A stretch of DNA of 64,000 bases from Syntrophales bacterium (GCA_963662405.2 CAXXKT010000001.1:128001-192000); one strand, 5' to 3'; positions 2,167-45,978 are shown, counted from the stretch's first letter. The notes: generated by a model not told the origin, from the letters alone. Program-made: numbers and translations.

Positions 2167-2227
2167 TAGTTGACTGAAAGAGATGGGATCAAGAGTGAAG
2201 AAAAAGTGGAGGATTTCTTTCCGTATT

Positions 2228-2283: not shown

Positions 2284-2613
2284 ATTCGTGCTTTTAGACT
2301 CCGGGAGTGTGCCGGTTTTTAGTCGATACTCGTAGGTCTGTTCCTTTTTGCATCGGTTTACGATGGTTGTCTCATTAACGGGTGCTCCCATTGTCCAGTA
2401 GACTATTTCGTCTTCATCGAAATACGTAATACGTTTCTTGTAAAAGTGCCCCTCGTATCCGTATGATCTGATATGCCCGACAAGCTGAATAAATAATTCT
2501 TCGTCAAGGCGGTCACGTACAATATACTCGTGTGGCCAAGTAGGCGCATAGGTCTTGGCAAACGTCCACTTCTGCTCTGTGATAAAAGCTTTGAGGTTGG
2601 TGGGAAGCTTCAT
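2254..2613 (-). CDS. Hypothetical cassette protein
   Basis: ORF from MKLPTNL ending inside attC; start chosen downstream of the previous gene's stop. Confidence 0.75.
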   Translation of the reverse strand: MKLPTNLKAFITEQKWTFAKTYAPTWPHEYIVRDRLDEELFIQLVGHIRSYGYEGHFYKKRITYFDEDEIVYWTMGAPVNETTIVNRCKKEQTYEYRLKTGTLPESKSTNAEQVVSPDA

Positions 2614-2647
2614 CGTCTCATTCCTGTTCGGTGTCCCGGATGGCCTT

Positions 2648-3226: not shown

Positions 3227-3244
3227 GTGTTCCGTATCCTGGTT

Positions 3245-3281
3245 GCCGAACAATGTTTATATGGATCCTGATAAAAACCTA
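3245..3281 (-). other. attI-like site, array 1
   Basis: TAGGTTTTTATCAGGATCCATATAAACATT-GTTCGGC; 32/33 identical to 30267-30299. Confidence 0.7.
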
Positions 3282-3359
3282 TTTTCCTTCCTGCTATACG
3301 TACCAAAGTGGTGATTGCAACTGAGGTAATTTAGGTTCATCATCTGTCTGTATTTCTTA

Positions 3360-4532: not shown

Positions 4533-5331
4533 ACACTTTGTTGTCTGGGCGGACGTGCCCGTTGAGGAGGTGACGCATGCAACGGTATCGCGCTACATAG
4601 AGTATCTGATGCAGAAGCGGCTATCGCCCAAGACCGTCAACTGTCATCTGAACGGTATTCGTCAGTTCTATCACTATCTGCGGGAAGAGGAAGGGATCGG
4701 TATTGTCAATCCCATCAGGAACAAACATACACAGAAGATGCCCCGACCCCTTCCCCGGCATTTACGAGACGAGCAGGTGGATCGTTTCTTTAACGTTGTG
4801 AATGGACACCGTGACCGTGCCATGTTCATGCTCATGCTCCGTTGCGGTCTCAGGGTGGAAGAGGTTGCCACCCTTGCCATCGGTGCCATAGACATCAAAC
4901 GCAGGGCTATCTTGATTGAGGACGGCAAGGGTGCAAAGGACCGGGTCGTGTATATGAGTAATGATGTGATTCAGTCACTGGCAGCCTATCTGAGAGTACG
5001 GCCGGCATCCCGGGCACGGAAGATCTTTCTGGCAGAGAAAGAGCCGTGCAGGGGCCAGCCCATCTCCATCCGCGGCATTCAACGGCGCATGGAACACTAT
5101 GCCCGCAAAGCGCGGATCAAAATGTCCTGTCATCATCTCCGGCATACGATGGCTACGCAGATGCTCAATGCCGATGCTGATCTGTGTACGATTCAGGATC
5201 TTCTCGGCCACAGCAATATAAAAACCACCCAGAGGTATTGCCGTGTATCGAACATGAAGGTTCAGAGAGATTACTTCAATGCCATGGAGGTCATTATGCA
5301 CCGAAGGGCCTGCAACCCACATAACACTTGA
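4438..5331 (+). CDS. Tyrosine recombinase B (XerC/D-like)
   Basis: CGLRVEE, GKGAKDR, HHLRH, LLGH, TQRY; GGAGG RBS; overlaps recombinase A. Confidence 0.92.
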   Translation: MDITNVIVNWRRFLKRRNCSPNTVKNYLNLIKHFVVWADVPVEEVTHATVSRYIEYLMQKRLSPKTVNCHLNGIRQFYHYLREEEGIGIVNPIRNKHTQKMPRPLPRHLRDEQVDRFFNVVNGHRDRAMFMLMLRCGLRVEEVATLAIGAIDIKRRAILIEDGKGAKDRVVYMSNDVIQSLAAYLRVRPASRARKIFLAEKEPCRGQPISIRGIQRRMEHYARKARIKMSCHHLRHTMATQMLNADADLCTIQDLLGHSNIKTTQRYCRVSNMKVQRDYFNAMEVIMHRRACNPHNT

Positions 5332-5509
5332 CGGAACAGAGAATATGTGAAATGGTAAACAACAACTAACCGCATAGAATCAATAGGTAAATCAGACTAT
5401 AGTACGTATAGCTTCCTGTAGTTGAGAAAAACAAGGGTGAAGAAGAAGTAGAATATTTCTTCCTGCAATCATTAGGAAAATAGTCGCTGTTGTCACTATT
5501 TTTCAAGAC

Positions 5510-8500: not shown

Positions 8501-9478
8501 GCCATCAATTGTTTTGTCGTCTTTCCTTTCATCCGGAATTCTCGATTCTAAATAGGCGAGATGATATTTTTGAAACTCCTTAGAAGTTAGATGGGCTTGC
8601 TTGTGTAAGTTGAGTGCTTCTTCACGTTTCCCAACAAGACTTGCCAAGTAGGCTCTTTGGTAATAGTATTCAGATTGTTCATGCTGACTTGCTTCTTCTA
8701 ATTGATCTGCTAATTTATCAAGCCTGTCTTGAGCTAGTATTGCGTTATTTAAAGATAGAATCTCGGAGACTTTTTTTAATTCATACGCAAAACTACCTTC
8801 TGGCGCATCTAACCAAGGTGTCTCAGTTTTGTTAAGGATTGTATCGAGAGCTACTTTATTGGTCCCAAAAATGCTTCCAATCTGATTAATCTTATTTATA
8901 GGATCAGAATATTTTTTCTCTACTATATCGTATATTCCTTCCAGAACCCTCTTTTTTTCTAAACGGTTGTTTAAGTATGGCAAAACGTTTAGACTTGAGT
9001 TTAAGACATTTTCGACAGGAATGTGAAATGTGTGTGTATCCTCGCCTAAATGATCGAGAGTTGGCTTTCCTGCTCGAAGCTGGTCAATTTTTTCATCCAT
9101 CCACAAATAGTAAGCTGTACACTTCCTAGGTTCTTCATCTTGGGTAAGATCCGCAAACACCAACATAACTGGGTTTTCGATTCTTATATAATAATTTAAA
9201 TTTCGAATGTCTAAAGGTTGAGAGAAATGTTTACCATCAGCACTGAGCCATTTATTTCTGCCATCCTTTATCTGTGCTGAACCCTTTATTTGAGCATTAA
9301 ACACGTTCTTATAATGCCCTTGTTCAACGATTTGCACTTGCATGTCTAAACCAGCATCAGCATCACCATCAGTCTGAGTTGGTCTCCATGACTTGGGATG
9401 ACAGCTGTTAAACGTCATAACTGCAAAATGCCCTATTTCTTGTGAAACAGATTCTTTTGGTAACTTAGTCTCTTTCAT
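5510..9478 (-). CDS. 1322-aa DUF4365-like PD-(D/E)xK nuclease + TPR-like repeats + probable C-terminal PIN domain; defence candidate
   Basis: DAGLDMQV...AQIKGS at N-terminus; long helical middle; LIDDVAL...FYTDD at C-terminus; AT-rich. Confidence 0.7.
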   Translation of the reverse strand: MKETKLPKESVSQEIGHFAVMTFNSCHPKSWRPTQTDGDADAGLDMQVQIVEQGHYKNVFNAQIKGSAQIKDGRNKWLSADGKHFSQPLDIRNLNYYIRIENPVMLVFADLTQDEEPRKCTAYYLWMDEKIDQLRAGKPTLDHLGEDTHTFHIPVENVLNSSLNVLPYLNNRLEKKRVLEGIYDIVEKKYSDPINKINQIGSIFGTNKVALDTILNKTETPWLDAPEGSFAYELKKVSEILSLNNAILAQDRLDKLADQLEEASQHEQSEYYYQRAYLASLVGKREEALNLHKQAHLTSKEFQKYHLAYLESRIPDERKDDKTIDGILSEIEKKNDLDYLRLKSKLLALNERYEEAFKILENQDEQDIFVLKALIHLLSGSYNDCINQVNKAFSEQDLTDRQELSLRSLKARSYFNLGFRKTPDDKAISFAGTPDMNPEILKNAWIELISAMNLADKLGYPPDVQSMIDIFSILGMYFNEPEIVKKHLVKLADIRPSIQIVQESLFQVAMHTSDRTIAERQLCKLPNTLNNKANKIILTYWKNDKAEVVKLAIEILDDLIKEKPANYDTVIAIAAECANDLMKYTERDKFLEALQTVPNSRSLIAVYDFILHANQEALKKPEAIEKLYDVYKEGHKHNQLLAQLFNNLNPYENAAAQKIIEISIDIISERDLLDSEYTILCQAKVTVQDWHGVLATSRKAQIRFSTNSQFKAFEALALDGIGETGKSLTLLEEISQGEKHDPFALEIYINISARCGLIEKAKTLVTRLLEKATYQKQKVHFLRMLFNIEMYINPKSERLIDICLKYGQLCDQNDEAEEGLYLLNFFVATLDPEKTVQDENVQEFQKRLKKYTERFPESKVLRSFHVKEKSHEDLLSQLETITGFTKEKREWYQRNENLLSSGTLPVPYLIRHHFLLNVSNFIHLWELSKITGKDDLQYQLTISPGPYVPRRIENLRGRMPLIDDVALLILFDLALLEYIFDIFPKIAIAKDSIANLQMLAQQFVFIPYATKAKDIVELLSRYVEQIQQPSSKDIIDENNIFSELDKIKSVYDSLKPIFYTDDAISRLYVCGKNHYEDTISTIDIITILKEKKVITQKEAAEKFAQLCAFNVVGMPINYKDILIVLEDDLSEAGGSIENYLEILNNHQAFNSFINAIWWFKGDYKNALTEIGQFLSYMISKEDGILVEQNIITAIWYVWFKKIQFVQKAERDKLNFLARSFLSISLELLKRIRRDHEDIKYWAQAWSIYKDVVEFAYGIDMDRDIENRSKSLLAEMIAEYEIESKKRIFNHLASGLTSGTAESDLFQKAYTDTIILKSKNNAV

Positions 9479-22741: not shown

Positions 22742-25700
22742 ATGGATGTTACGAGAAGAGGTTTTCTAACTATTTCCGGCGCGGTCGGATCGGGCATCGC
22801 CTTGTCCTCTCTGGGCATCAATCTGAAACCAACGAAGGCGTATGCAAGCGAACTCAACAAGATGAACCGGCTCAGGGCAGCCAAGCAGGTCACGACGGTA
22901 TGCTGCTACTGCGCCGTGGGGTGCGGCCTCATCTGCAGTGTCGACAAGGTTACCGGCAAGATATTCAATATCGAGGGCGACGCCGATCATCCCATTAATG
23001 AAGGGTCACTGTGCGCGAAGGGGGCCGGATTCTTCGACCTGACGGAGGCCAACAAGTACCGTCTCCGGAAAGTTCTCTACCGTGCGCCGAAGAGCGACCG
23101 GTGGGAAGAAAAGGACTGGGACTGGGCCCTTGCCCGTATCGCCCGCCTGGTCAAAGACACCAGAGAAAAGGATTTCATCACCACCAACAGCAAAGGCCAG
23201 ATCGTCAACCGGACCGAATCGATCGGACATCTGGGAAGTTCCAACGTCGACAGCGAGGAGTGCTGGCTGATGAGCGTGATCTCACGCGCCATGGGGCTTG
23301 TCTATGTTGATCACCAGGCCCGGGTCTGACACAGCCCGACTGTAGCGGCTCTGGCAGAGTCGTTCGGACGCGGTTCCATGACAAACCACTGGATAGATCT
23401 CCAGCACAGCGATTGTATACTGATTATGGGCAGCAATGCGGCGGAACATCACCCCATTGCCTTCAAATGGATGCTCCGGGGAAAAGAAAAGAACGGAACG
23501 AGACTCATCCATGTCGATCCCCGCTTCACCAGGACATCGGCCCGTTGCGATTATCACGTTCCCCTGCGTTCCGGAACCGATATCGCCTTCCTGGGCGGGA
23601 TGATCAACTACATTCTCAACTCCGATAAATATTTCAAAGATTACGTCGTCAACTACACCAACGCCCCCTTTATCGTGGCGGAGGGTTTCGGCTTCAACGA
23701 CGGTCTCTTTACGGGGTACGACAAAGACAAGAAAAAATACAACAAGGAGACATGGGTGTTTGAAAAGGACTTTGCGGGAAATCCCAAGAAAGATCCTTCC
23801 CTCAATCATCCGCGCTGTGTCTTCCAGCTCCTGAAAAAACACTACACCCGCTACACCCTGGAGAAGGTCTCCAGCACCACCGGCGTTTCCAAGGAAGACC
23901 TGATGAAGGTCTACACGGACTACGGGAGCACCGGCGTGGGCACCCGCGCGGGGACGATCTGTTACGCCCTGGGCTGGACGCACCATTCGACGGGTACGCA
24001 GAATATCCGCACCATGGCCATGATTCAGCTCCTGCTCGGCAATATCGGGATCAACGGCGGCGGCGTCAACGCCCTTCGAGGCGAACCCAATGTCCAGGGA
24101 TCGACCGATCACTGTATCCTGTACGGCAATCTGCCGGGCTACCTGAAGATGCCCAAGGCGTCTCAAGACACGCTCGATAAATATCTCAAAAAGTACACCC
24201 CGGTGACAAACGATTCCCAGTCGCCGAACTACTACCGGAACTATCCGAAGTTCTACGTGAGTTTCCTCAAGTCGCTCTTCGACGACAAGGGGACACCGGA
24301 AAACGAATTCGGCTATTCCTGGATGCCCAAACTGGATGACGACGTACCGTACTCCCTCATGCACCTCTTCGACACGATGTACAAGGGCACGGTGAAGGGG
24401 CTGTTTTCCGTAGGTACCGATCCGGCCGTCAGCTCGCCCAACGCGAACAAGGTGAGAAAGGCGCTGAAAAAACTGGACTGGCTGGTAAGCGCCAACATCT
24501 TCGACAACGAGACCTGTTCCTTCTGGAAGGGCCCCGGTGTCGATCCATCGAAGATCAAAACGGAGTGTTTCCTCCTCCCCGCCTCGGCCTCCATGGAAAA
24601 GGAAGGCAGCCAGACCAACAGCGGCAGATGGGTGCAGTGGAAATACAAAGCGGCCGAAGCCCCCGGCGATGCGATTCCCGTGGGAGAAATATTCATAAAG
24701 ATCATGCAGTCCGTTCAATCTCTCTACGCCAAGGAAGGCGGCATCAATCCCGAACCGATCCTGAATTTCAAATGCGATTACCATGACCGGAGCGGCAACT
24801 TCGTTGCCCTGGGAGCGGCCAAGCAGATCAACGGTTACTTCCTTAAGGACACGGTCATCAAGGGCAAAACCTTCAAGAAGGGACAACTGGTTCCGACCTT
24901 CGGCATGCTCCAGGACGACGGTTCCACCTCCAGCGGCAACTGGCTCATGGCGGGAAGCTTCACCGCCGACGGCGAAAACAATATGACCAAACGCGGGAAG
25001 GACGATCCGACAGGTCTCGGCCTCTACCCCAACTGGACGTGGGCCTGGCCCGTCAACAGGCGCATCCTGTACAACCGCGCCTCCTGCGATATTAACGGAA
25101 AACCGTACAACCCGAAGAGAAAGCTCCTCGAGTGGACCGGTGAAAAATGGGTGGGCGACGTCCCCGACGGCGGCTGGGCGCCCATGGCCGATCGCGAGAA
25201 TGGGAAGTACCCCTTCATCATGAAACCCGACGGCGTGGGATCGCTCTTCGGTCCCGGTATGGCGGAAGGACCGTTCTCCGAGCATTACGAGCCCTATGAG
25301 ACGCCTCTGAAGAAAAATCCCCTTTCCAGCCAGTTGAACAATCCGGCGCTCCACGTGTTCACGACCGACATGGATCAGTTGGCCAACGGAGACGGGAAGT
25401 TCCCTTATGTCTGTACCACCTATTCCTGCACCGAGCACTGGTGTTCCGGTGCGCTGACGCGATGGCAGGCGTGGCTCCTGGAGATGCAGCCGGAGGCATA
25501 CGTCGAAATCGGCGAAAAGCTTGCGCAGGAAAAGGGCATCAAGAACGGCGAAAAAGTAAAGGTGTCCTCGGCCCGGGGATTTGTGAAATGCGTGGCCATG
25601 GTTACCAAGCGATTCCGCCCCTTCCTCGTTGAAGGCAAGACGGTGCATCAGGTCGGTCTGCCCTTCAATTATGGGTGGTTGTTCCCCGAAGATGGCGGGG

Positions 25701-25792
25701 ATAGCGCCAACATACTTACGCCCTCTGTCGGTGACGCGAATACCCACTGTCCCGAATACAAGGCGTTCATGGTTAACGTGACGAAGAGTTAG
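22742..25792 (+). CDS. fdnG: Periplasmic formate dehydrogenase alpha subunit, selenoprotein (UGA 23327-23329)
   Basis: Tat motif TRRGFL; CCYCAVGC; DHQARV-U-HSPTV joins the two ORF-track pieces in frame. Confidence 0.95.
23337..23362 (+). promoter_or_regulatory. SECIS hairpin
   Basis: CGACTGTAGCGGCTCTGGCAGAGTCG just 3' of the UGA. Confidence 0.7.
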
Positions 25793-27350: not shown

Positions 27351-27444
27351 TAATGAGTACGAATGAAGGCTGTCTTTGTTTGCTTCCTGTAGTCGATAAA
27401 AACCAGAGTGAAGAAATAGTAGTGGTTTCTTTCAGTACTCATTA
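27351..27444. repeat. 94-bp unit with 10-bp terminal inverted repeats, containing the conserved array-distal segment
   Basis: TAATGAGTAC...GTACTCATTA; right part similar to 5412-5474 and 2190-2232. Confidence 0.6.
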
Positions 27445-27501
27445 CGGACTGCTGTGGGGCGCGCGGTCGTTTTGCGCGCCCCTACCAGCAGATAGTTAGC
27501 A
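27439..27501 (-). other. attC site, array 2, third cassette
   Basis: TGCTAAC...GCTGGTAGGGGCGCGC-loop-GCGCGCCCCACAGC-agtcc-GTAATGA (GTA instead of GTT). Confidence 0.8.
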
Positions 27502-27508
27502 TAGCTTT

Positions 27509-28243
27509 TTATGTTTTCGCCATCGCTTTTGAAAGATTACCTGATTTTTTCCACCCATAAAAAGTTTTTTCAAAAAATTCTTTAGACGCTGTATTTTCAA
27601 TCAGGACAGGTAATATACCATTATAATTTAGGAAAAGCTTTTCATTGTATGGTAGCTGTCCAGTATGGTTTGAAATAAAAAACACCCATGTTAAACCCGC
27701 CAACACAAACATATAACATCGATGTCCATCAAATCTTGTTTCTTTAGCGAGCATCATCATTTTGCTGGTAAAATCGAAATAGGACGGGGTAAAGATTATG
27801 AGGCATCCATAGTCATAAGATGCACCTGGATTACCCTCGTATAACATAGAACGTAATTTTTCTTCATGAGGTCCTAAGCTAACGTTTGTAAATTGATGAA
27901 GATTTGATGCTCCTGCTCGCCATATAAGCGAAAGCTGAAATAGTTTAAACTTTGTATAATCAATATTTTTTATTATGATAAAATCACTCATTTTCTCCAT
28001 ACTTAGCTTATTACCACTAAAAAACACTTGAGCAGCATATGTTTCCCATTTATTCAGTCTGTCTTCGCATTCTCGGCAAAGCATCTTTTCCCTAAAGCCC
28101 TTTTGCCATTTTCTTACTTTTGGTGCACCTTCTATTTGAACGAATTGATGCTTTTCCTTGGCATAAAGAGCTTTGAAAAGAAATTCTGGGACTATATGCG
28201 AATTACATAGTTCTTTTTCTTTAAGGCACAATCTACATTTCAT
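27509..28243 (-). CDS. Cassette protein, HNH-endonuclease-like
   Basis: CRLC....L..SHIVP...LCRECE N-terminal motif. Confidence 0.65.
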   Translation of the reverse strand: MKCRLCLKEKELCNSHIVPEFLFKALYAKEKHQFVQIEGAPKVRKWQKGFREKMLCRECEDRLNKWETYAAQVFFSGNKLSMEKMSDFIIIKNIDYTKFKLFQLSLIWRAGASNLHQFTNVSLGPHEEKLRSMLYEGNPGASYDYGCLIIFTPSYFDFTSKMMMLAKETRFDGHRCYMFVLAGLTWVFFISNHTGQLPYNEKLFLNYNGILPVLIENTASKEFFEKTFYGWKKSGNLSKAMAKT

Positions 28244-28253
28244 AGTGAATTGA

Positions 28254-28315
28254 TGCTAACGGGCTGCTCAGGGGCGCGCGGCTTTTGCGCGTTTACTGCA
28301 GCAGCAATGTTATAG
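28254..28315 (-). other. attC site, array 2, second cassette
   Basis: CTATAAC...GCTGCAGTAAACGCGC-loop-GCGCGCCCCTGAGC-agccc-GTTAGCA; CTATAAC is complementary to the GTTATAG that opens the cassette. Confidence 0.9.
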
Positions 28316-28333
28316 CAACGTCTTATGATTCAA

Positions 28334-28936
28334 TTATAGAGGGTCTTCATTAGATAAACGTATTTCAAAAGTGTTACCTAAATACATAATATTTAGACAG
28401 TTTCCATGGCCTAAAAATACTCTTTCCATACCTTCTTTAGCTGGTTGAAGTCGGTATTCGACCTGAGTAACCTTTGCTGCAACCGCAATTTTAACACCGA
28501 AAAATGTATCTGGATCGTTTTTTATTGCTTTGATAATTGAATAAACCTTTTGCTTGGGGCAAAGAAGTTCCAGCTTAAGCTCTGGCGAATGCCTTGAGGC
28601 CCTTATCAATAGCTGGTAGTTGATATCATCACATGTAGCCACATTCTCCAAGGTTCCGATAAACAGAATGGGTTTGCCAATTAACCATACTGCCTCTAAA
28701 TCAATCGAGTAGAGACATCGGGAATGCTTTTTAATAATGGATTCTCTCCAGCTAGTATCAGCTCCCGAATCCCTAGCAAAAGCTTGGACTGCCAAGCGTA
28801 GGGCCTCTTCTTGAGCTTTTTCTTTAGCGCCAGAATCTGCGATATCTTTCTGACGATCTGAGCATGATAGCATACACAAGCTAAGAATGGCCGCAGTTAC
28901 AATAATGAGCCTCTTAAATCGATGTATATGTGTCAT
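28334..28936 (-). CDS. Cassette-encoded putative lipoprotein
   Basis: Start after GTTATAG-AGGTAGG; signal peptide ending LCMLSC. Confidence 0.7.
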   Translation of the reverse strand: MTHIHRFKRLIIVTAAILSLCMLSCSDRQKDIADSGAKEKAQEEALRLAVQAFARDSGADTSWRESIIKKHSRCLYSIDLEAVWLIGKPILFIGTLENVATCDDINYQLLIRASRHSPELKLELLCPKQKVYSIIKAIKNDPDTFFGVKIAVAAKVTQVEYRLQPAKEGMERVFLGHGNCLNIMYLGNTFEIRLSNEDPL

Positions 28937-28950
28937 GGGTTTTCCTACCT

Positions 28951-29024
28951 CTATAACGTTGTCTTCACCGGTGGCGACGAAGTGAAGTGGAATTGTCCCA
29001 TCCGAGTGCAAGGCATGGTTGGCA
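28951..29024 (-). other. attC site, array 2, first cassette
   Basis: TGCCAAC-catgc-CTTGCACTCGGATGG...CCACCGGTGAAG-acaac-GTTATAG with extrahelical bases. Confidence 0.9.
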
Positions 29025-29027
29025 TTT

Positions 29028-30248
29028 TCATCCAAATGAAAAAGACGTATTCTTGCTAAATACTTTTATCTCACCATCGGCGGAGATTTTCACAGAAAGC
29101 CCATAATCTTTCAGTGTGTTCGCTGCTGCAAGTCGCGCACCTCCGTCTGACCCTGCTTCCAGCTTAAGTATCGCTCCTGCAGAAATAAACTTTCCTGTAG
29201 CATCAAGAACCACCGCACCGTCAATACCGAGAATTTCTTGCCTCAATCTTCTATCTGTATTTTGAAAGGTAGCATTATTTATAGCCGCTAATAATACCTT
29301 GGTTTTGATAGATCGATTATTTTCGAAATGATCTGATTCATTAACCCTTTGATCATCATGAAATTTTTTAGATTTCGCCTTTTGAAGTATCCCGATGCAA
29401 GCACCAGTACGTGCAAATGAAACGTCAATGATTGACTCATAAAGGCTTTCCCTCAGATTTCTATCAAGTTTCCTGCTTTTAAACGCTAATTGTCTTAATA
29501 CTGAATTGTAAGCGAATAGCCTCCATTCCCCTCTTCTTTTAGCAAATATGAGGGTCCCAGAGTTGAAAACTAATATTTCGCCATTTCTATTTAATATAAG
29601 GGCGATCTTGTTGTTTCCCTCAGTATATTTTGCAAAGGTGGTGTAGCGGAAAGGTGAGTTGTGAGTTTCTGGTGCGAGGTTAAGTGTTTGGTATCCAATA
29701 AGATTATTTCCGATGGAAAATTCCACCAATGTATCGTACCCATTTGTCAATACCTTCGAAAAATCATTCTTTGTATATTCTTCAAAAGTTGTACCATTTG
29801 ACGAAATAACATTCATATCAATGCCAATAGATACAGCTATCCTATTACCTTCATATGTCTCTCCTGACCAACGTTCCAATTTTTCAATAAATCTGGCTAT
29901 CTCCAGAATTTTATTAGAATCGTCATCCTCAACCAAAGATTTTGCTATAACCCTACTAACAGTGTTCGATATCAGATACTTTTGAATTTGTTCATCAAGT
30001 GTTGCATAATCATTAGCTATATTAAATACATCTCTGATAATTTTTGTTTCATTAGATTCAAAAGGTTGGGCTCTATAAACAATATACCGTCCTCCTTCTT
30101 CACAAAGAATCCCAATTTTAGAGCCTCCGCTTAGGTGTGATACATCTTTCTTCTGATTTCCTGAATCTTGTTCAAAAGATATATCAATACCAGAGAAAAA
30201 TTTAACAATTTGGTTAGAGAGTATAAAGTCAACTAAATCTTTTTTCAC
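29028..30248 (-). CDS. Cassette protein with C-terminal DisA_N/diadenylate-cyclase-like domain
   Basis: TGACIG, IDGAVVLD..G, GGARLAAA, VKISADG. Confidence 0.75.
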   Translation of the reverse strand: MKKDLVDFILSNQIVKFFSGIDISFEQDSGNQKKDVSHLSGGSKIGILCEEGGRYIVYRAQPFESNETKIIRDVFNIANDYATLDEQIQKYLISNTVSRVIAKSLVEDDDSNKILEIARFIEKLERWSGETYEGNRIAVSIGIDMNVISSNGTTFEEYTKNDFSKVLTNGYDTLVEFSIGNNLIGYQTLNLAPETHNSPFRYTTFAKYTEGNNKIALILNRNGEILVFNSGTLIFAKRRGEWRLFAYNSVLRQLAFKSRKLDRNLRESLYESIIDVSFARTGACIGILQKAKSKKFHDDQRVNESDHFENNRSIKTKVLLAAINNATFQNTDRRLRQEILGIDGAVVLDATGKFISAGAILKLEAGSDGGARLAAANTLKDYGLSVKISADGEIKVFSKNTSFSFG

Positions 30249-30262
30249 ATCTGCTCCTTATA

Positions 30263-30299
30263 TACCAACAATGTTTATCTGGATCCTGATAAAAACCTA
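30263..30299 (-). other. attI-like site, array 2
   Basis: TAGGTTTTTATCAGGATCCAGATAAACATT-GTTGGTA; GTTGGTA pairs with TGCCAAC of the first attC. Confidence 0.7.
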
Positions 30300-30561
30300 A
30301 ACACGGCAGTTTTGCTGTATGAAGCCTCTCACGAAAAACAAAAAGCCCCACCTCTCTTTGATGAGAAACAGGGCTTTGATAATCAGACCATAATCCACTC
30401 CTTGGTTACAGCCAGTCACAAGCAGAAAAAATCAAGATCAAGATTTCATCTAGCTAACTCTATGATGATGTATTGTCAAGAGATTTTACCATGAGACCTT
30501 CAATCAGTATTCATCGATTTTCTTCTGGAATTATTTTGAGCAGTAGTAGATACCGTTCTTG

Positions 30562-31530
30562 TCAAGCGAAAGCTGGTTTATAATTTGGGTCATACTTTTT
30601 GCCGGATTTCAGGATTCCAAAGATAATGTGCACCAGCTTCCTCATTATCGCACAGACAATCACTTTCCCGTTTTTTCCTTTCTCTTTAAGGCGATTATAA
30701 AAAGCAATCATAACGGGATTACATTGGATCGATACCAGTGCCGGCATATACAGAGCTTTTCTGAGCCGCGCATGTCCGATTTTGCATAACCTGGGTTTGC
30801 CTTTAATAGATGATCCTGAAAGTGTTTCCCGTGGCGCAAGCCCGATGAACGCCACCAGTTCCCGCACATGACTGAATTTGTCCAGATCATCCAATTCTGC
30901 CAGGATGTGAGGAATGGTTGCCGTGCCGATACCTGGAATGGAAGCCAAGAGCCCTTTCTTGTTTTTCAGGTTCGGATCCCGATCAATTAGATCAGCAATC
31001 TGTTCCCTGATTTTCTCTATTTCCTTATCAAGATAGTTAATGTGTTCTCTGATCAATGGAATAACTGATTCATGAGCTGCACTTATTCGATTCTTCTCCT
31101 GACTTCGCATGTTGATCAGACTGTCAACTCGCCTGACCAACGCCCTCAGGGCTCTGATCTCCGGTGAGGGTGGACTCCAGGGATCTGGTCTCATAGCCAG
31201 ACAGAATCTGGCAATCAAGGCTGCATCAACCTTATCCGTCTTGGTGCGAATCAACTCGCTCTGGCCAAACCCTTTGATGCGAGCGGGATTGACAACACTG
31301 ACCACATGGCCGGTTTCATGGAGATAGATCGCCAATTCCTCTCCATAGTTGCCGGTCGCCTCAAGGCAGGCATGTACCTTATGAACTCCCTGTCTCTCCA
31401 GCCAGATCGTCAGTGTCTCAAAACCTTCCACCGTATTTTTGCAGGTTTTGTGTTTTGTCTTCCCCTCTACAAGAAGTGCAACGTCGAATTTCTGTTTTGC
31501 GATATCTATCCCAAGAACCGATACTGACAT
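30562..31530 (-). CDS. IS110 transposase (IS621-like size)
   Basis: LGIDIAK, LEATG, KTDKVDA, GLAP...SGSS. Confidence 0.96.
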   Translation of the reverse strand: MSVSVLGIDIAKQKFDVALLVEGKTKHKTCKNTVEGFETLTIWLERQGVHKVHACLEATGNYGEELAIYLHETGHVVSVVNPARIKGFGQSELIRTKTDKVDAALIARFCLAMRPDPWSPPSPEIRALRALVRRVDSLINMRSQEKNRISAAHESVIPLIREHINYLDKEIEKIREQIADLIDRDPNLKNKKGLLASIPGIGTATIPHILAELDDLDKFSHVRELVAFIGLAPRETLSGSSIKGKPRLCKIGHARLRKALYMPALVSIQCNPVMIAFYNRLKEKGKNGKVIVCAIMRKLVHIIFGILKSGKKYDPNYKPAFA

Positions 31531-31574
31531 ACTACAATACTCCCTCGTACATTAATCTAATCTCCAGTAAAATA

Positions 31575-31735
31575 GCTTCGTTCGAATCAACCTTGTAAGT
31601 GCAAACTCATTCCCATCTGAGAAGGTTTATGATACCGTACGAGTTATTGAACAAAGCTGTGGGAAGAGGATCTACTCTACAAATCATGCTCTCTGGCATC
31701 AGGTGAAACACAGATTCACTCTCCCCATTTTACCC
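31575..31735 (-). ncRNA. Putative bridge RNA of IS110 copy A; ends approximate
   Basis: Two loops with segments matching target (GTTTCACCT, GTAG) and donor junction (ACGGTATCA, ACAAG). Confidence 0.7.
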
Positions 31736-31875
31736 CAGTGTCTCAAGATCTCTTATATCTCCTAATCCCCTTCTAGAACACAAGGTGCTATACGTAACAA
31801 AATGGTGGTTGCAACTGAGCCATCATAGGTTCATCATCTATCTGTATTTCCTGTTGATTTGGTGGGAAGGAGAGA

Positions 31876-33039
31876 GTGATGAGCCAAAAAGCCACAGAAA
31901 CGTATTCTGTCTTATCTCCGTCATCCCTGACTGGTTTGAGAAACACCGATCATGGTGAGGGGATACAGCACACCGTTGTTTTCAAACCGGGCATTCCTGA
32001 AAAAACAGGGTGCATTGAGGGCCTTCGATACCAGCAACAGTCAAAAGCACTTCGATGGGCATTAGATCGTATTGCGGCCTGGAACCTGCCTGGCACGGAG
32101 CATGTTGAGGAATATTTTCGGAGCATGTATCGGCGGAACTTCAGGCCCAGAACATACGCTAGCAACTTGGCAGCGATTCATGTCTTTCTCACCGTTGTCA
32201 GGGATTCGGGAAAGGCCCATTTGGAAGAGGTTACCAAAGGTGACATTGAAGCCTTTATCGAGCATGAGCAGGATCGAGGGTTGATGTTATCAACAGTACG
32301 GACGAGGCTGCATTGCGTCAATGCCTTTTTAGGCTATGCAATAGATTCAGGTATTGTTGGCACCGATGTCCTGGCACGAAGGATCCGCCTGAAAAAGCCG
32401 GAGACATTGCCTCGAGCCATAGATCCTGATGACGTCAAGCTTCTTCTCTCCGTTATCGATCATCCCAGAGATCGAGCCATGGTCACGGTACTTCTACGGA
32501 CGGGAATGAGAATCGGCGAGTTACTCGGTACCATGGTACGGGATCTTCACATGAAAGACCGGAGGGTTGATATTTACGAAGGGGAGAAGAATCGTATCGG
32601 GAGAGTGGTCTATCTCAGCGATGATGCGGTCAGTACTTTGAAGGCATGGCTCAAGATGAGAGATGCCCATAAGGAGTTTCTCTTTTATGCCCGAGGTAAA
32701 AGTAGCATGTCTTACAGCACTGCTCGTCAGATATTTGTAGATTATCTCACGAAAGCCGGTCTTGCTTATAAGGGATACTCCCTTCATGCGCTTCGCCATA
32801 CCTTTGCCAGTGAGCTACTAAATGCCGGTATGAGGATCGAGTGTCTCCAGCCACTGATGGGGCATACATCTCTGGATGTCACCAGGCGCTATGCACGGCT
32901 TACGGACAAGACAAGAGAGGGAGAGTACTTCAGAGCCATGACAATCATAGAAAGGGGGAAAATTGATGGACATTACCGATGCGATCATCAGGTACAGGCG
33001 TTTCTTGAAGAGAAGGAACATCTCACCGAACACTATTAA
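31876..33039 (+). CDS. Tyrosine recombinase A
   Basis: TGMRIGE, HALRH, LMGH, TRRY; paralogue of 3360-4532. Confidence 0.92.
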   Translation: MMSQKATETYSVLSPSSLTGLRNTDHGEGIQHTVVFKPGIPEKTGCIEGLRYQQQSKALRWALDRIAAWNLPGTEHVEEYFRSMYRRNFRPRTYASNLAAIHVFLTVVRDSGKAHLEEVTKGDIEAFIEHEQDRGLMLSTVRTRLHCVNAFLGYAIDSGIVGTDVLARRIRLKKPETLPRAIDPDDVKLLLSVIDHPRDRAMVTVLLRTGMRIGELLGTMVRDLHMKDRRVDIYEGEKNRIGRVVYLSDDAVSTLKAWLKMRDAHKEFLFYARGKSSMSYSTARQIFVDYLTKAGLAYKGYSLHALRHTFASELLNAGMRIECLQPLMGHTSLDVTRRYARLTDKTREGEYFRAMTIIERGKIDGHYRCDHQVQAFLEEKEHLTEHY

Positions 33040-33859
33040 GAACTATTTGAATAGTCTCAAACGGTTTGTGATCTGGCTCGATGTACCGATCGAGGAGGTT
33101 ACATACCATAAGATTACAGCGTATATAGATTGCATGATCGGCCAACGGTTACGTCCGAAGACTATCAACTGTCATCTGAATACGGTTTGTCAGTTTTATC
33201 ACTACCTCATCGAAGAGGAAGGGCTCCCGATCGTGAATCCTGTCAGGAAACCAAATATCATGAAACTCCCCCGGGGACTTCCCAAACATCTCAGAGAAGA
33301 CCACATAGATATCCTCTTCAATCATCTGAAAGGATATCGGGATCGAGCCATGTTTACGCTCATGCTCCGATGTGGCCTGCGAGTGGAAGAAGTGGCTCAT
33401 CTTTCACTCGGCAACATTGATCTTAAACGCAGAATGCTCCTCATCCAGGATGGCAAGGGTGCCAAAGATCGAATTGTCTATATCAGTAACGATGCCCTTC
33501 ATGCTCTCGTGAAATATCTCTGGGTGAGGCCCGCAAACAAAGTAAGGAGGGTTTTTCTGGTAGAGAAAGGGCCATGCACGGGACGTCCTCTCTCCATTCG
33601 CGGCATTCAAAAGCGCATGGAGTATTATGCGCGTAAAACAGGACTCAAGATATCCTGTCACCATCTTCGTCATACAATGGCCACTCAGATGTTGAATGCA
33701 GATGCTGATCTGTCTACCATCCAGGATCTCTTGGGACATAACTCAATCAGGACAACACAACGATACTGCCGAATATCAAATCTCAAAGTACAGAGAGATT
33801 ACTACAAAGCCATGGAGGTGATCATGCAGAAGACGGCTGGCAACTCAAATAATCCTTGA
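32966..33859 (+). CDS. Tyrosine recombinase B
   Basis: CGLRVEE, GKGAKDR, HHLRH, LLGH, TQRY; paralogue of 4438-5331. Confidence 0.92.
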   Translation: MDITDAIIRYRRFLKRRNISPNTIKNYLNSLKRFVIWLDVPIEEVTYHKITAYIDCMIGQRLRPKTINCHLNTVCQFYHYLIEEEGLPIVNPVRKPNIMKLPRGLPKHLREDHIDILFNHLKGYRDRAMFTLMLRCGLRVEEVAHLSLGNIDLKRRMLLIQDGKGAKDRIVYISNDALHALVKYLWVRPANKVRRVFLVEKGPCTGRPLSIRGIQKRMEYYARKTGLKISCHHLRHTMATQMLNADADLSTIQDLLGHNSIRTTQRYCRISNLKVQRDYYKAMEVIMQKTAGNSNNP

Positions 33860-33950
33860 CGGGATAGAGGATTTATGAAACTTTAAACACAGCATAACAC
33901 CATAATATCAATGGTAAATATAGATTATGTTACGTATAGGTAGGTGCAAG

Positions 33951-34151
33951 ATGTGAGGTCCGGTGTAGCAGGGGCAGAGCTAGTGTTTGGTTGCGCTGTG
34001 CTTCCTGTTGTCAAGCTTCCAGTTAAGAGGGTTGTGCTTTATTACAAACGGTAATGGTTGACATACTGTAGTGCCGTTGGGAAACCAAGTGGAAAACGGA
34101 GTAAACAAGTCTAATCAACATGTAGAATCGAGAGAAAACGGTCTATTTGAC
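33951..34151 (+). mobile_element. Possible degenerate, internally deleted group II intron relic
   Basis: 5' similar to 37358 (GTGTG start); 3' GGGAAACCAAGTGG...GGTCTATTTGAC resembles an intron domain VI end. Confidence 0.4.
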
Positions 34152-36031: not shown

Positions 36032-37268
36032 AGATACCGTTCTTGTCAAGCGAAAGCTGGTTTATAATTTGGGTCATACTTTTTGCCGGATTTCAGGATT
36101 CCAAAGATAAGGTGCACCAGCTTCCTCATTATCGCACAGACAATCACTTTCCCGTTTTTTCCTTTCTCTTTAAGGCGATTATAAAAAGCAATCATAACGG
36201 GATTACATTGGATCGATACCAGTGCCGGCATATACAGAGCTTTTCTGAGCCGCGCATGTCCGATTTTGCATAACCTGGGTTTGCCTTTAATAGATGATCC
36301 TGAAAGTGTTTCCCGTGGCGCAAGCCCGATGAACGCCACCAGTTCCCGCACATGACTGAATTTGTCCAGATCATCCAATTCTGCCAGGATGTGAGGAATG
36401 GTTGCCGTGCCGATACCTGGAATGGAAGCCAAGAGCCCTTTCTTGTTTTTCAGGTTCGGATCCCGATCAATTAGATCAGCAATCTGTTCCCTGATTTTCT
36501 CTATTTCCTTATCAAGATAGTTAATGTGTTCTCTGATCAATGGAATAACTGATTCATGAGCTGCACTTATTCGATTCTTCTCCTGACTTCGCATGTTGAT
36601 CAGACTGTCAACTCGCCTGACCAACGCCCTCAGGGCTCTGATCTCCGGTGAGGGTGGACTCCAGGGATCTGGTCTCATAGCCAGACAGAATCTGGCAATC
36701 AAGGCTGCATCAATCTTATCCGTCTTGGTGCGAATCAACTCGCTCTGGCCAAACCCTTTGATGCGAGCGGGATTGACAACACTGACCACATGGCCGGTTT
36801 CATGGAGATAGATCGCCAATTCCTCTCCATAGTTGCCGGTCGCCTCAAGGCAGGCATGTACCTTATGAACTCCCTGTCTCTCCAGCCAGATCGTCAGTGT
36901 CTCAAAACCTTCCACCGTATTTTTGCAGGTTTTGTGTTTTGTCTTCCCCTCTACAAGAAGTGCAACGTCGAATTTCTGTTTTGCGATATCTATCCCAAGA
37001 ACCGATACTGACATACTACAATACTCCCTCGTACATTAATCTAATCTCCAGTAAAATAGCTTCGTTCGAATCAACCTTGCAAGTGCAAACTCATTCCCAT
37101 CTGAGAAGGTTTATGATACCGTACGAGTTATTGAACAAAGCTGTGGGAAGAGGATCTACTCTACAAATCATGCTCTCTGGCATCAGGTGAAACACAGATT
37201 CACTCTCCCCATTTTACCCCAGTGTCTCAAGATCTCTTATATCTCCTAATCCCCTTCTAGAACACAAG
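36032..37268 (-). mobile_element. IS110-family element, copy B
   Basis: Differs from copy A by a few SNPs; target GT-AG-GTG. Confidence 0.93.
36046..37014 (-). CDS. IS110 transposase
   Basis: Two amino-acid differences from copy A (KTDKI/V, VHL/I). Confidence 0.96.
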   Translation of the reverse strand: MSVSVLGIDIAKQKFDVALLVEGKTKHKTCKNTVEGFETLTIWLERQGVHKVHACLEATGNYGEELAIYLHETGHVVSVVNPARIKGFGQSELIRTKTDKIDAALIARFCLAMRPDPWSPPSPEIRALRALVRRVDSLINMRSQEKNRISAAHESVIPLIREHINYLDKEIEKIREQIADLIDRDPNLKNKKGLLASIPGIGTATIPHILAELDDLDKFSHVRELVAFIGLAPRETLSGSSIKGKPRLCKIGHARLRKALYMPALVSIQCNPVMIAFYNRLKEKGKNGKVIVCAIMRKLVHLIFGILKSGKKYDPNYKPAFA

Positions 37269-37350
37269 GTGAAACACAGATTCACTCTCCCCATTTTACC
37301 CCAGTGTCTCAAGATCTCTTATATCTCCTAATCCCCTTCTAGAACACAAG
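37187..37350. repeat. Exact 82-bp tandem duplication of the IS110 left end
   Basis: 37187-37268 equals 37269-37350. Confidence 0.95.
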
Positions 37351-37357
37351 GTGAAAA

Positions 37358-40495: not shown

Positions 40496-43189
40496 ATGGA
40501 CAAGAAAATCACCTTAACGATCGATGGGAAGGCGTGTGAGGCTTCTCCAGACCAAACCATCTTGGATGTCGCGAGGGCTGCCGGAATTCATATCCCCACT
40601 CTCTGTTATTTCAAGGGAACCACCAATGTGGGAGCCTGCAGGGTATGCGTCGTGGAGGTGGAAAACGCCCGGTCGCTGGTTGCGTCGTGTTGTATGCCGG
40701 TCAGCCAGGGAATGGTCGTCACGACCAACTCGGAGCGGGTCCTTACGGCCCGAAAGATGGTAGTGGAACTCCTCTGGTCGTCCGGAAATCACAATTGTCT
40801 TCAGTGCGAACAGAACGGAAACTGCGAACTCCAGGACCTCGTCTATGAACTGGGTATCGAACAGCCTCGCTTCGAGATCGAATCCCCGGGGTACGAAACA
40901 GAAGAAACCAATGCCATGATACAGCGGGACCTGAACAAGTGCATCCTCTGCGGGAGATGCGTCCGCGTCTGTAACGAGATCCAGGTCCACGAGGTCCTCG
41001 ACTTTTCCATGCGCGGATCACACGCGAAGGTCGGCCCCGCCTTCGGTGAGGACTACATCGATTCGAACTGCGTCTTCTGCGGCTCATGTGTAGACGCCTG
41101 TCCCGTCGGTGCCCTGACGTTCAAACAGGCACGGTTCAAGGGGCGCCCGTGGGAGATCGAAAAAGTCCGTACCACCTGCCCCTATTGCGGCGTGGGATGC
41201 CAGATGGACCTCAACATCAGCGAGGGAAAGATCATCAAGGTCACGGCCGACCGGGAGTACGGCAAACCCAATGAGGGGATGCTCTGCTCGAAGGGGCGAT
41301 TCGGAATGAACTTTATCGACAGCCCCGACCGCCTGAAAATGCCCCTCATCCGCAAGAACGGGGAACTCCAGGAGGCGACCTGGAACGAGGCCTATGACTA
41401 CATCACGAAAAAGCTGACCGGCATCAAAGAAAAGAACGGCCCCGACAGTATCGCGGGGCTTTCCTCGGCCCGGGTCACCAATGAAGAAAACTATCTCTTC
41501 CAGAAATTCATGCGAGCGGTGATCGGAACAAACAATGTCGATCACTGCGCCCGTCTCTGACACTCCGTCACGGTAGCCGGTCTGGCTGCCACATTCGGAT
41601 CAGGGGCCATGACGAATTCGATCGAGGAGATAGAATTTACGGACGCGATCCTCGCCATCGGGACGAACACGACGGAGAATCACCCGGTGATCGGATCGGG
41701 GGTGAAACGGGCGGTCCGCCGGCGCGGCGCCAAGCTGATCGTGATCGATCCCCGGAAGATCGGTCTCGTCGACTACGCCACCATCTGGCTGCGTCCCCGG
41801 CCCGGCACGAATGTCGCCGTCCTTAACGGCCTGATGAACGTGATCATCGAGGAGAGACTCTACGCCAAGGAATATGTGGCGGAGCGCACCGAGGGGTTCG
41901 AGGCGTTGAAGGAGGCCCTTGCGAAATACACCCCCGAGCATGTCTCGGGGATCACCGGCGTACCGGCCGAGGATATCAGGAAAGCCGCCCGGATATATGC
42001 CGAGGCGAAGAGCGCTTCCATCCTGTACGCCATGGGAATCACCCAGCACACGCACGGTACCGACAATGTGAAATCCTGCGCCAATCTGGCGATGCTGTGC
42101 GGCAATGTCGGGATCGAAGGGGGCGGTGTCAACCCCCTCAGGGGCCAGAACAACGTCCAGGGGGCCTGCGACATGGGGGCGCTTCCCAACGTCTTCCCCG
42201 CATACCAGCAGGTCGCCAATGACGAGGCCCGGGTAAAGTTTGAACAGGCGTGGAACGCCTCGCTCCCCGCAAAACCGGGGCTGACGATCATGGAGATCAT
42301 GGACGCGGCCCACCGGGGAGACCTCAAGGCCCTGTATATCATGGGCGAAAATCCGATGATGTCGGACCCCGATCTCTCTCATGTCGAGGCGGCATTGAAA
42401 AACCTTGATCTTCTCGTTGTCCAGGATATCTTCCTGAATGAAACGGGGCAACTTGCCGACGTGGTCCTCCCCTCCGCCTGTTTTGCCGAAAAGGACGGGA
42501 CCTTCTCCAATACGGAGCGGAGGGTCCAGCGCATCCGCAAGGCCGTGGATGCCCCCGGCGAGGCGAAGGCCGACTGGCAGATCATCTCCGACCTGGCGAC
42601 GCGGATGGGGTACGCCATGAGTTATGCCTCCGCCAAGGAGATCATGGACGAGATCAACACCGTGACCCCCAGCTACGCGGGGATCACGTACGAGCGGATC
42701 GAAGAGGAAGGGCTTCAGTGGCCCTGCCCCACGCTCGAGCATCCCGGGACGAAATACCTGCACAAGGACAAGTTCTCCCGGGGACTGGGACTCTTTTCAG
42801 CGATCGAGTACCGGTCGTCTGAAGAGGTACCGGACAAGGAATACCCCTTCTTCCTCACGACCGGACGCGTTCTCTACCACTTCCACACGGCGACCATGAC
42901 CCGCAGGAGTAAAGGGCTCGTCGAGCGGTACCCGGAGAGTCTGGCGGAGATTAACCCCACAGACGCCGGGAAGCTGGGAATCAAAGATGGAGACTTCGTG
43001 ACCGTCACATCGCGGCGCGGGAGTCTCAAGGTGAAGGCCAGCGTGGTGGAGACCCCGCCGGAGGGGACGATCTTCATGAATTTCCACTTCAGCGAGGCGG
43101 CGGTGAATCTCCTGACTAACCCCGCGCTCGACCCGGTGGGGAAGATCCCCGAATACAAGGTCTGCGCGGTGAAGATCGAGGCCGCGTAA
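40496..43189 (+). CDS. fdhF: Cytoplasmic formate dehydrogenase alpha subunit with NuoG-like Fe-S N-terminus, selenoprotein (UGA 41558-41560)
   Basis: [42 protein letters not shown]. Confidence 0.93.
41572..41590 (+). promoter_or_regulatory. SECIS hairpin
   Basis: GGTAGCC-GGTCT-GGCTGCC, 11 nt after the UGA. Confidence 0.85.
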
Positions 43190-43228
43190 ACATTCGTTAG
43201 AACCAAACCGCAACGCGGGAGTAAATAC

Positions 43229-43260
43229 AAAAGGAGACGGCTTCAGGGCCGTCTCCTTTT
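43229..43260. terminator. Bidirectional terminator between the convergent fdh genes
   Basis: AAAAGGAGACGGC-ttcagg-GCCGTCTCCTTTT. Confidence 0.9.
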
Positions 43261-43284
43261 ATTGTTTTGATCTGCTGCCTATTG

Positions 43285-45978
43285 TTACAGTTTTTCCAGC
43301 GTCACGGCGCAGGCCTTATACTCGGCGGTCTGCGTGGCGGGATCGAATACCGGATTGGTAAGCCAGTTCGCGCATCCCTCGCGGAAATGGAATGCCATCC
43401 AGACCATTCCCGGCGGGACCTGCTCCGTCACCTTGGCCTTGACCTTCACGTCGCCGCGTCTCGACCGGACCCGGATCATCTCGTCGTGGGCGATACCGAG
43501 GCTCCTGGCATCGGCAGCCGATATGTCGGCCGTCTCCTCGGGGAGGAGGAAGTCCATTCCGGCGCGGCCGGTCTGCGTCCGGGTGTGGTACTGGTAGAGC
43601 CGCCTCCCCGTGCTGAGAACGAAGGGGTACTCCTTGTCGGGGACCTCCGCCGGCGGCGTCCAGTCCACCGCATTGAATTGACCCAGCCCGCAGGTGAACT
43701 TCCCTTCCCGGTGGAGAAAAGCCGTACCGGGGTGCTCCTCATCGGGGCACGGCCACTGGAGTCCGTCGTTCTCGATCCGCCGGTATTTGATGCCGCAGAG
43801 GGCCGGCGCCAGGACGGATACCTCGTTGTCCCAGATCTCCTGGGAGCTTTCAGAGGCCCACTCGTGCCCCATGCGTTTCGCGATCTCTCTGAAGATCCAC
43901 CAGTTGGGCCTCGCGATTCCCGGGGGCTCGCTGACCTTTCGGACGCGGTTGACCCGGCGCTCACTGTTCGTGAAGGTCCCGTCGTCTTCGCACCAGGCGG
44001 CGGCCGGGAGGATCACGTCGGCGAATCGCGTCGTCTCGGTGGGGAAGATATCCTGGCAGACGATGAATTCGGCCGCCGCAAGTTCCTCTTCCACCTTGGT
44101 GATATCGGGCTCGCTGTTCGCCAGGTTCTCACCGAAGATATAAAAGGCCTTCACCGCCCCGCTCTTCAGCCCCTCCATCATCTGGGGGATCATAAGACCG
44201 TTCGCGCCGGGAAGATCCTTCACGCCCCATGCCTTCTCGAACTTGGCACGGGCATCGGCGTTGGCGACCTGCTGGTAGCCGGGAAAAACGTTGGGGAGGG
44301 CACCCATGTCGCAGGCCCCCTGGACGTTGTTCTGACCGCGGAGGGGATTGACACCCCCGCACTCCTTCCCCATGTTCCCCAGGAGCATCTGGAGATTCGC
44401 CGTGGACATGACGTTGTTCTTGCCGCAGGTGTGCTCGGTGATCCCGAGGGTGTAGCAGAGCATGCAGGATTCGGCGGCCGCCAGGCGGCGGGCCACGTCA
44501 CGGATCATCTCTTCGGATACACCTGCCACCTCCGCCGCCCGTGACACCGGATATTCGAGGACCTTCTCCTTCAGTTCCTCGAACCCGACACAGCATGTCG
44601 ATATGAACTCTTTATCGTACAGGTCTTCGGTGATGAGGACGTTCATCACCCCGTTCAGAAAAGCGATATCGGACCCCACCTTGATGGGGACATGGAGCGA
44701 GGCGAAGTCGACCAGGGGCTGTCTCCGCGGATCGACCACGATCAGCTCGGCCCCTTTGCGCACGGCATTCTTGAGGAAGGTCGCCGCCACGGGGTGGGCC
44801 TCGATCATGTTGGTGCCGATGCAGAAGAACATCTTCGCCCGGCTGAACTCGTCAAAGGAATTGGTCATGGCCCCGGAACCGAAGGAAGCCGCCAGACCGG
44901 CGACTGTGGGGGCGTGTCAGGTACGGGCACAGTGATCGATGTTGTTTGTCCCCAGCACCGATCGGAAGAGTTTCTGCATCTGGTAGGAGTCTTCGTTGAT
45001 GCTGCGGGCACAGCTGACACCGGCGATGGCATCGGGCCCGTCCTTTTCGATGATCTCCTTGAACTTGGAGGCGACGAGATCCAGGGCCTCGTCCCATGAG
45101 GCCTCCCGGAAATCCCCTCCCTTCTTGATGAGGGGCGTGGTCAACCGGTCCTCCGAGTAGATAAAGTCATAGGCGAAGCGTCCCTTCACACAGAGACGGC
45201 CCTTGTTCGGCGCGCCGTCCTCGACGGCGGTCACCTTGGCAACCTTTCCTTCCTTGTTGACATGGAGCCACATCTGGCAACCCACACCGCAGTAGGGACA
45301 GGTGGTACGCACCTTTTTCATATCCCAAGGGCGCCCCTTGTACCGCGATTTCTTCTCGATCAGGGCACCGACGGGGCAGACCTCAACGCACTGACCGCAA
45401 AAGACACAGTCACTATCGAAATAGGGCTGATCGGTTCCCGCGATGATCTTCAGATCCGATCCCCGGTAGCCGTAGCTGAGGGCCCGGTTGACCACGAGTT
45501 CGTTGCAGGCCTGGACACAACGGCCGCAGCGGATACACCGGGTGAAATCGCGGATGATAAAGGGATTATCATCTTCTTTCGGGTACGGCTGCGGGCTGCT
45601 GGCGAAGGGGACATAGTCAACCTCGTACCGGTAGGCCAGATCCTGCAGCTTGCAGTTGCCGTTCGCCTCGCAGGAGATGCACTCATGAGCGCCGCTGGCG
45701 AGGAGAAGTTCCACATTCAGTTTCCGCGCCCGGCGGACCCGGTCCGACTCGCTCCATATCTCCATACCCGCCGTCGCCGGCGTGCTGCAGGCGGCAACGA
45801 GGGATCGTGCCCCCGTCACCTCGACCAGGCACATGCGGCATGCACCCGTGGGTGTGGCGCCCTTCAGATAGCAGAGCGTCGGGATGTCGACTCCGTTGTC
45901 CGTTGCGACATCGAGAATTGTCTGCCCGGGCTCGAACGCAACGGGTTTCCCGTCCAATTGTAACGTTGCTGTGGCCAT
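43285..45978 (-). CDS. fdhF: Second cytoplasmic formate dehydrogenase alpha subunit, selenoprotein (UGA 44917-44919)
   Basis: Same architecture; DHCART-U-HAPTVAGL in frame. Confidence 0.93.
44887..44905 (-). promoter_or_regulatory. SECIS hairpin
   Basis: AGTCGCC-GGTCT-GGCGGCT, 11 nt after the UGA. Confidence 0.85.

Follow-up and report, generated by a model that had tools for sequence, protein, structure and literature searches.

A probable integrase-less integron platform with three gene cassettes beside an independent dual tyrosine recombinase element in a Syntrophales bacterium

How can an integron cassette array stand 127 kb from the nearest integrase gene (intI), and what is a pair of tyrosine recombinase genes doing beside it? 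These questions are raised by locus 2 of the 64-kb stretch of DNA that we analysed (G000:C1:128001-192000, hereafter the window, to which positions without a contig name refer), which belongs to a Syntrophales genome of 3.8 Mb and about 54% GC. The locus lies between a formate dehydrogenase (fdh) operon and a hydrolase gene, and overlapping contig pieces of the best-matching sequencing run span the whole of it. We read it as an integrase-less integron platform, made up of a leader, an attI site and three cassettes, accompanied by an independent hitchhiking element, and give this reading a probability of roughly 0.7. Its features are as follows, M, A, R and 'platform' being labels coined in this analysis.

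27381-27445, minus strand: M module, a non-coding repeat of about 66 bp, with its start at the final crossover G|TAATGA and the 7-mer CAGGAAG (27383-27389) at its end
27439-27501, minus strand: attC3, with a non-canonical R' (GTA); 16.9 bits with model R1, fold z -4.4
27509-28243, minus strand: cassette 3 gene, 244 aa, 34% GC, with a Cys/His-rich N-terminus, HNH-like as a lead only
28254-28315, minus strand: attC2, with one extra spacer base; 18.7 bits with R1
28334-28936, minus strand: cassette 2 gene, 200 aa, with an N-terminus that looks lipoprotein-like by eye and no family match
28951-29024, minus strand: attC1, 25.7 bits with R1; homologous arms accompany the same gene in L270
29028-30248, minus strand: cassette 1 gene, 406 aa, 36% GC, diadenylate-cyclase-like (DGA motif) as a lead only
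30263-30318, minus strand: attI site, of a family found 3' of intI genes, with the crossover G|TT between 30269 and 30268
30336-30547, minus strand: R leader repeat, distant kin of the intI leader, with a TTGACA box, a terminator-like hairpin and, at the 5' end, a recombinase target
30550-31784, minus strand: IS110-family element, transposase at 30562-31530, insertion point GTAG|GTG
31788-33939, plus strand: dual tyrosine recombinase element, 2152 bp with 11-bp inverted ends, genes at 31876-33039 and 32963-33859
33940-33946, plus strand: 7-bp core GTAGGTG, the left copy of which is split by IS110 (30546-30549 and 31785-31787)
33943-33998, minus strand: A module, about 56 bp from CAGGAAG to CACCTAC, 15 copies in the genome
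33999-34008, no strand: 10-bp direct repeat TGCTTCCTGT, with a second copy at 27381-27390; both bound the whole locus-2 unit

An earlier note on this DNA had described three attC sites whose boxes pair cassette by cassette, and this description holds. On the minus strand GTTGGTA (30263-30269) is complementary to TGCCAAC (29018-29024) at 6 of 7 positions, and GTTATAG (28951-28957) with CTATAAC (28309-28315) as well as GTTAGCA (28254-28260) with TGCTAAC (27495-27501) at all 7. Beyond the fixed GTT/AAC, 11 of the 12 variable positions pair, for which a calculation by hand with equal base frequencies gives a chance of about 2e-6. The covariance-model scan proposed in the note was carried out with a home-made model, R1, built from nine attC sites (an initial alignment of 14 was misaligned and was reduced to 9) that all come from the two intI-linked arrays of G000 and none from the window; heuristic scans for attC, with 58 and 681 matches, gave too much noise and served only for picking training sites. 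With filters off and E<=1, R1 returned five matches in the 64 kb, namely four sites and one weaker match on an opposite strand. Three are those of locus 2, all accepted by this independently trained model, and the fourth lies in locus 1 (2228-2283, 30.4 bits, its opposite strand being the weaker match); R1 found no further attC in the window. When folded, the bottom strands show the extrahelical base that attC should have, the stability of attC1 being unremarkable (fold z -0.7, with -2.5 for attC2 and -4.4 for attC3). Two sites depart from the canonical form, attC2 by an R''-L'' spacer that is one base longer and attC3 by an end that reads GTAATGA instead of GTT. The contigs of four sequencing runs held no cassette circle or excision joint, and the joints 30299-31826 and 31859-32881 seen in run contigs most likely derive from the locus-1 paralogue. 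Run X1 contains two attC-side loose ends that are absent from G000.

The three cassette genes have a GC content of 34-40% compared to about 54% for the genome, and two of them recur in other arrays. A relative of cassette 3 (71% identical) is the GTTAGCA..TGCTAAC cassette of another array (G026:C64), and a relative of cassette 1 (84% identical) is found in another array with homologous attC arms and a different attC ahead of it. Comparison of these arrays demonstrates that the cassettes of locus 2 are mobile and, together with the occurrence of the attI family 3' of intI, bears out the note's view of them as integrated cassettes. Searches of the cassette genes against PADLOC, Pfam and PDB gave nothing useful; the product of cassette 1 may be diadenylate-cyclase-like, a lead (Atlas features 0.95, DAC in 11% of members) with no Pfam or PDB match. 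Behind a leader-attI platform of another genome (G020, L268:9819-11134) the first-cassette position is taken by a tyrosine recombinase gene with 34% identity to IntI.

The 33-bp attI-like block of locus 2 is identical to that of locus 1 at 32 of 33 positions, so that the two loci do share the same site. An attI HMM gave 15 matches in G000, 13 of them at E<0.001, most matches being its own seeds, which originally came from BLAST. The genome encodes a full-length IntI (C1:2211990-2212934, 471 bits, catalytic residues present) and a second, frameshifted intI, and the attI family with an array is located 3' of both genes on the same strand, in the case of the intact intI beyond an inserted IS. In L002, L215, L216 and L217 attI-like ends lie 166-177 nt 3' of intI, and in three relatives with a 72-77% identical IntI and the 3' flank present the attI family follows at a distance of 173-177 nt from the gene; in the case of more distant IntIs (45-54%) it is mostly missing there (18 loci examined). 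As many as 13 of the 15 attI copies are separated from every intI by 99 kb or more, or lie on a different contig, 11 of these 13 intI-less copies have an R1-detected attC downstream, and intI-less attI sites of similar type occur in at least ten relatives. Sequence comparison thus demonstrates the site family and its link to intI, and judged in the same way the locus-2 attI is a genuine integron site at the head of an array from which intI is missing. Its subtype agrees with the attI behind the intact intI at 26 of 37 aligned positions, and no intI was seen with this subtype immediately behind it; an attI is reportedly recognised only by its cognate integrase (PMC2095811).

Could the cassettes instead have entered a secondary site (attG), with the 'attI' as a chance look-alike? 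IntI is described as inserting widely at GWT sites, spreading cassettes off the integron (attG/SALINs, 10.1101/2022.09.11.507474), and the last crossover at locus 2, into M, is of this type (GTA). However, the attG consensus in that source is short, while locus 2 starts at a conserved 50-bp attI that heads 15 loci and also stands behind intI. Furthermore, an attI-type end is present within 260 nt in 13 of the 51 copies of the leader, the background rate being 0.7%, using a pattern that is partly fitted to known sites. This explanation is very improbable as a whole and has been shown to be wrong for the upstream site, even if M may be an attG-like hotspot.

The layout resembles a CALIN, with at least two attC, no intI nearby and an IntI elsewhere in the genome; for CALINs it has been proposed that intI was lost and that another integrase makes use of them (PMC4889954), and they can be mobilised in trans (10.1101/2025.06.18.660453). 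With three attC and the nearest intI at 127 kb, locus 2 fits the CALIN definition and would work like an integron. It is not a complete integron: attI heads the array, but an adjacent intI is absent. It differs from CALINs in keeping a full attI and leader with intI cleanly absent, and in being one of 13 intI-less attI sites in a single genome, a situation that recurs across the family; the CALIN study, as far as its text was available, matched class 1-3 attI only (PMC4889954). From the inverted-integrase integrons of the Treponema group treated there it is set apart by non-autonomous, intI-less platform copies dispersed genome-wide. Further literature was compared (PMC5737581, PMC12901181), and in the open-licence papers searched, supplements aside, neither multi-copy intI-less attI platforms nor the element discussed below turned up.

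The earlier note implied a non-canonical integron in which the neighbouring recombinase pair serves as cassette integrase, as two co-occurrences within 30 kb, both divergent, might suggest. The observation itself is correct: with IS110 removed, the second dual-recombinase element starts 253 bp from the attI-like block (the note gave about 250 bp) and 284 bp from the crossover, in divergent orientation. An attC was also detected by the model in the flank of 5 of 52 element-bearing loci (60 sources scanned; many short loci are among the 52, in at least three cases one element is present twice, and the scan excluded 17 matches with flanks of 300 bp). Against such a role, the IntI insertion is absent from all four recombinases of loci 1 and 2, and those of locus 2 reach only 78 and 102 bits against TIGR02249 with its cut-off of 265. 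The element stands beside 2 of the 15 attI-family matches, leaving 13 without it, it has its own ends, cores and targets, and an IntI linked to the same site family is resident in the genome. The idea is largely refuted: the recombinase pair is a separate mobile element and not the enzyme that inserts the cassettes.

This element of 2.15 kb is filled by its two recombinase genes (387 and 298 aa). After removal of IS110 the locus-2 copy has GTAGGTG on both sides, and the core of the locus-1 element is CTTCCTG. A pattern scan found at least 118 loci. Among the matches listed, 54 of 120 oriented matches have the element's leader or recombinase, the most frequent of their 7-mers being GTAGGTG (12), CACCTAC (8), CTTCCTG (7) and CAAATAC (5), and the named records are mostly deltaproteobacteria and Nitrospirota. 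Both sides carry equal 7-mers in 12 of 17 complete copies, one other copy being cut by a contig end; mismatched 7-mers could reflect a core carried along by the element. The attI HMM, which was trained on G000 and may miss distant sites, had no match at the element ends (0/54). In run X6 near-identical element DNA with the same core was found between unrelated flanks. Two copies of 3.2 kb carry extra ORFs and have no attI or leader match. At L030:14714-17245 (C2:404719-407245) a lone tyrosine recombinase gene is located beside a CACCTAC target site, and 1.5 kb further on there is an orphan right end of the element with a CTTCCTG core.

Why the element and attI come together is explained by the target of the GTAGGTG lineage. 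In 18 of 20 flanks of this lineage a 14-base motif follows the core, and its offset is 34-35 bases in 19 of 20; with other cores it was seen in 15 of 117 (chance pattern matches included) and in shuffles at 6.7%. The motif itself was derived from these flanks and from the leader, so that it is the fixed offset that counts as independent evidence. Among the core-plus-motif sites of G000, 12 of 26 are leader starts. The co-occurrence is thus due to a lineage that targets a fixed site at the leader 5' end, so the shared insertion hotspot, which the note had kept as its fallback, accounts for both cases. Mechanistically, the element would be cut out and inserted by recombination at the 7-bp core, the GTAGGTG lineage recognising a two-part target of core and motif 34-35 bases on, and would have landed before IS110 split its left core, because the motif would otherwise be 1.2 kb away. 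The IS110 transposase has DEDD and Transposase_20 domains, and all five IS110 copies are at the same junction type as in locus 2. A second copy in the window (37160-37353) shows an 82-bp tandem duplication of its end. Locus 1 (2169-5475) has the order M, element, attI, cassette, M, and here IS110 cuts the distal M at the core.

The origin of the platforms can be traced through the leader. It is a repeat of 215 bp with 67 matches that precedes many attI copies and contains a conserved TTGACA box (30474-30479) with no canonical -10, as well as a terminator-like hairpin (30342-30377) ahead of attI. It had no match in Rfam; a structure alignment revealed the terminator and two-sided changes in 1 of 28 pairs, which is why we do not claim a riboswitch. 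With the leader profile the intI leader of G019 is recovered (E 6e-5), and this one matches the intI leaders of G000; a direct comparison of R with the latter is at noise level, so that the kinship runs via G019 and G011. The G011 platform aligns with the G019 intI leader with a score of 87 (shuffle maximum 30) and with the post-intI segment with a score of 74 (shuffle maximum 31), no intI lying between the two parts. In the platforms of G011 and G019 an intI-type leader is joined straight to the post-intI segment and a locus-2-type attI. Platforms would accordingly be integrons minus intI, and these intI-less leader-attI fusions, established by alignment, are the best evidence for their origin. 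The ancestor would have been an integron with intI and array in the same direction and attI about 170 bp behind the intI stop, which lost intI and kept leader and attI. Cassettes would then be loaded by an IntI via attC x attI, most simply by the intact IntI of G000 in trans, and the leader might drive or gate their transcription. If integrons with intI and array in one orientation lost intI cleanly, and did so repeatedly within a bacterial family, this would be a concrete route to CALINs, and the remaining docking sites may still accept cassettes.

Locus 2 might also be a frozen relic, filled at a time when intI was still part of the platform, or by an integrase that has since disappeared, with no resident enzyme serving its attI today. 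The deviating attI subtype and the imperfect attC2 and attC3 fit such a history, as does the detection of IntI in 12 of 38 family genomes, many of them fragmented, compared to 29 of 38 for the leader. In G007, of the same genus, the syntenic region contains the HTH gene, what remains of a molybdopterin gene, the 3' end of fdh, the terminator and a remnant of M, followed (G007:C38) by a leader, a damaged attI and two other ORFs, without element or IS110. R1 had no match on this array (L051), whose sites are eroded, and G007 gave no intI match. Against a relic speak two distant platforms that share 375 of 422 bases and carry different cassettes; their post-leader segment agrees with the one of an intI at 155 of 167 positions. 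In addition, a cassette of about 140 bp that holds no gene and has at least five copies in the main intI array (G000:C1:2214392 on) is also the first cassette at the distant intI-less attI C2:287957. We therefore regard a relic as possible but rather unlikely.

The G007 locus, a comparison of the kind suggested in the note, has other ORFs after leader and attI, but with its different leader-attI spacer it may be a paralogue at the same hotspot. Relatives usually lack the element, one half of a condition that the note had named as telling against its view; the other half, an array fixed among them, was not observed. None of the relatives joins the fdh side to the hydrolase side, and at the corresponding place G016 has no array and only an 11-bp element end. 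The element of G021 sits at a leader without attI. Elsewhere in G016 (C39) an M-attI-cassette-M arrangement is found without the element.

A further possibility concerns the movement of entire platforms, which recombinases of the dual-element family may have spread. In this explanation they would move a circle of A, leader, attI, cassettes and M joined at CAGGAAG or CACCTAC. M has 21 HMM matches in the genome, many straight after an attC. The module ends coincide with the three commonest cores of the element: M ends in CAGGAAG, A extends from CAGGAAG to CACCTAC, R starts with CACCTAC, and another module holds GTATTTG. Of 252 homology breakpoints 42 are no more than 4 nt from an exact core (control mean 12.2, maximum 24, none of 300 controls reaching 42), although breakpoints are not independent and the neighbourhoods were picked around these modules. 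The 10-bp direct repeat over the core bounds the locus-2 unit, and core-bounded platforms are also present in G016 and G005. On the other hand, a search of 251 genomes yielded neither an empty target nor an attI-M junction, the module ends resemble target arms and not element ends, IS110 and other inserts at the same junctions also make breakpoints and could give part of the signal, and the platform at C2:288375 has unequal cores at its two ends. Taken together, we consider mobile platforms unlikely. Distinctly unlikely is a two-tier capture, in which IntI loads platforms in trans and dual-element recombinases relocate them between 7-bp cores; if true, one integrase would serve a genome-wide, re-locatable set of docking sites. 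The pdif modules of Acinetobacter are bounded by simple tyrosine-recombinase sites and offer an analogy for platform movement, the difference being that the 7-bp cores here are also those of a mobile element. The idea that M is an empty attI's right half was discarded, as 3 pattern matches in the 251 genomes all lacked an attI or M profile and a longer pattern gave none. A 150-bp module with CACC(TAC) on both sides is located between A and the leader at G000:C1:235921, 1941815, 1947177 and 2642176, and around M and the fdh-side flank (27351-27445) a short inverted repeat, TAATGAGTAC, can be seen by eye.

Among known elements, Tn554, SEs, RIT and GInt are likewise small with several tyrosine recombinases and terminal inverted repeats (PMC10214605, PMC3414803, as far as these texts were available). 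The element described here differs from all of them: it has two recombinases and neither a third nor any accessory gene, its ends are 11 bp long, its 7-bp core is usually identical left and right, and its target includes a second motif at a fixed distance. RIT have three overlapping recombinase genes and inverted repeats of 34 bp at their termini; SEs and Tn554 combine an ordinary and a large recombinase with accessory genes and carry a 6-bp footprint without target duplication, in contrast to two proteins of 387 and 298 aa only and identical flanking 7-mers in 12 of 17 copies (PMC10214605, PMC3414803). By these defining features the element is not a RIT, SE or Tn554. A circle joint as expected for an SE/Tn554-type circular intermediate was absent from the contigs of four runs. 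With core plus motif at a fixed distance, the target of a small two-recombinase element is now defined.

Other features of the window include an Rfam int-alpA motif above the gathering score (311-377) and a low-GC DUF4365 protein of 1322 aa with a weak restriction-endonuclease-type PADLOC match, followed by M (5510-9478). The formate dehydrogenase large subunits at 22742-25792 and 40496-45978 are each split into two adjacent ORFs, a pattern that a read-through TGA (selenocysteine) would produce.
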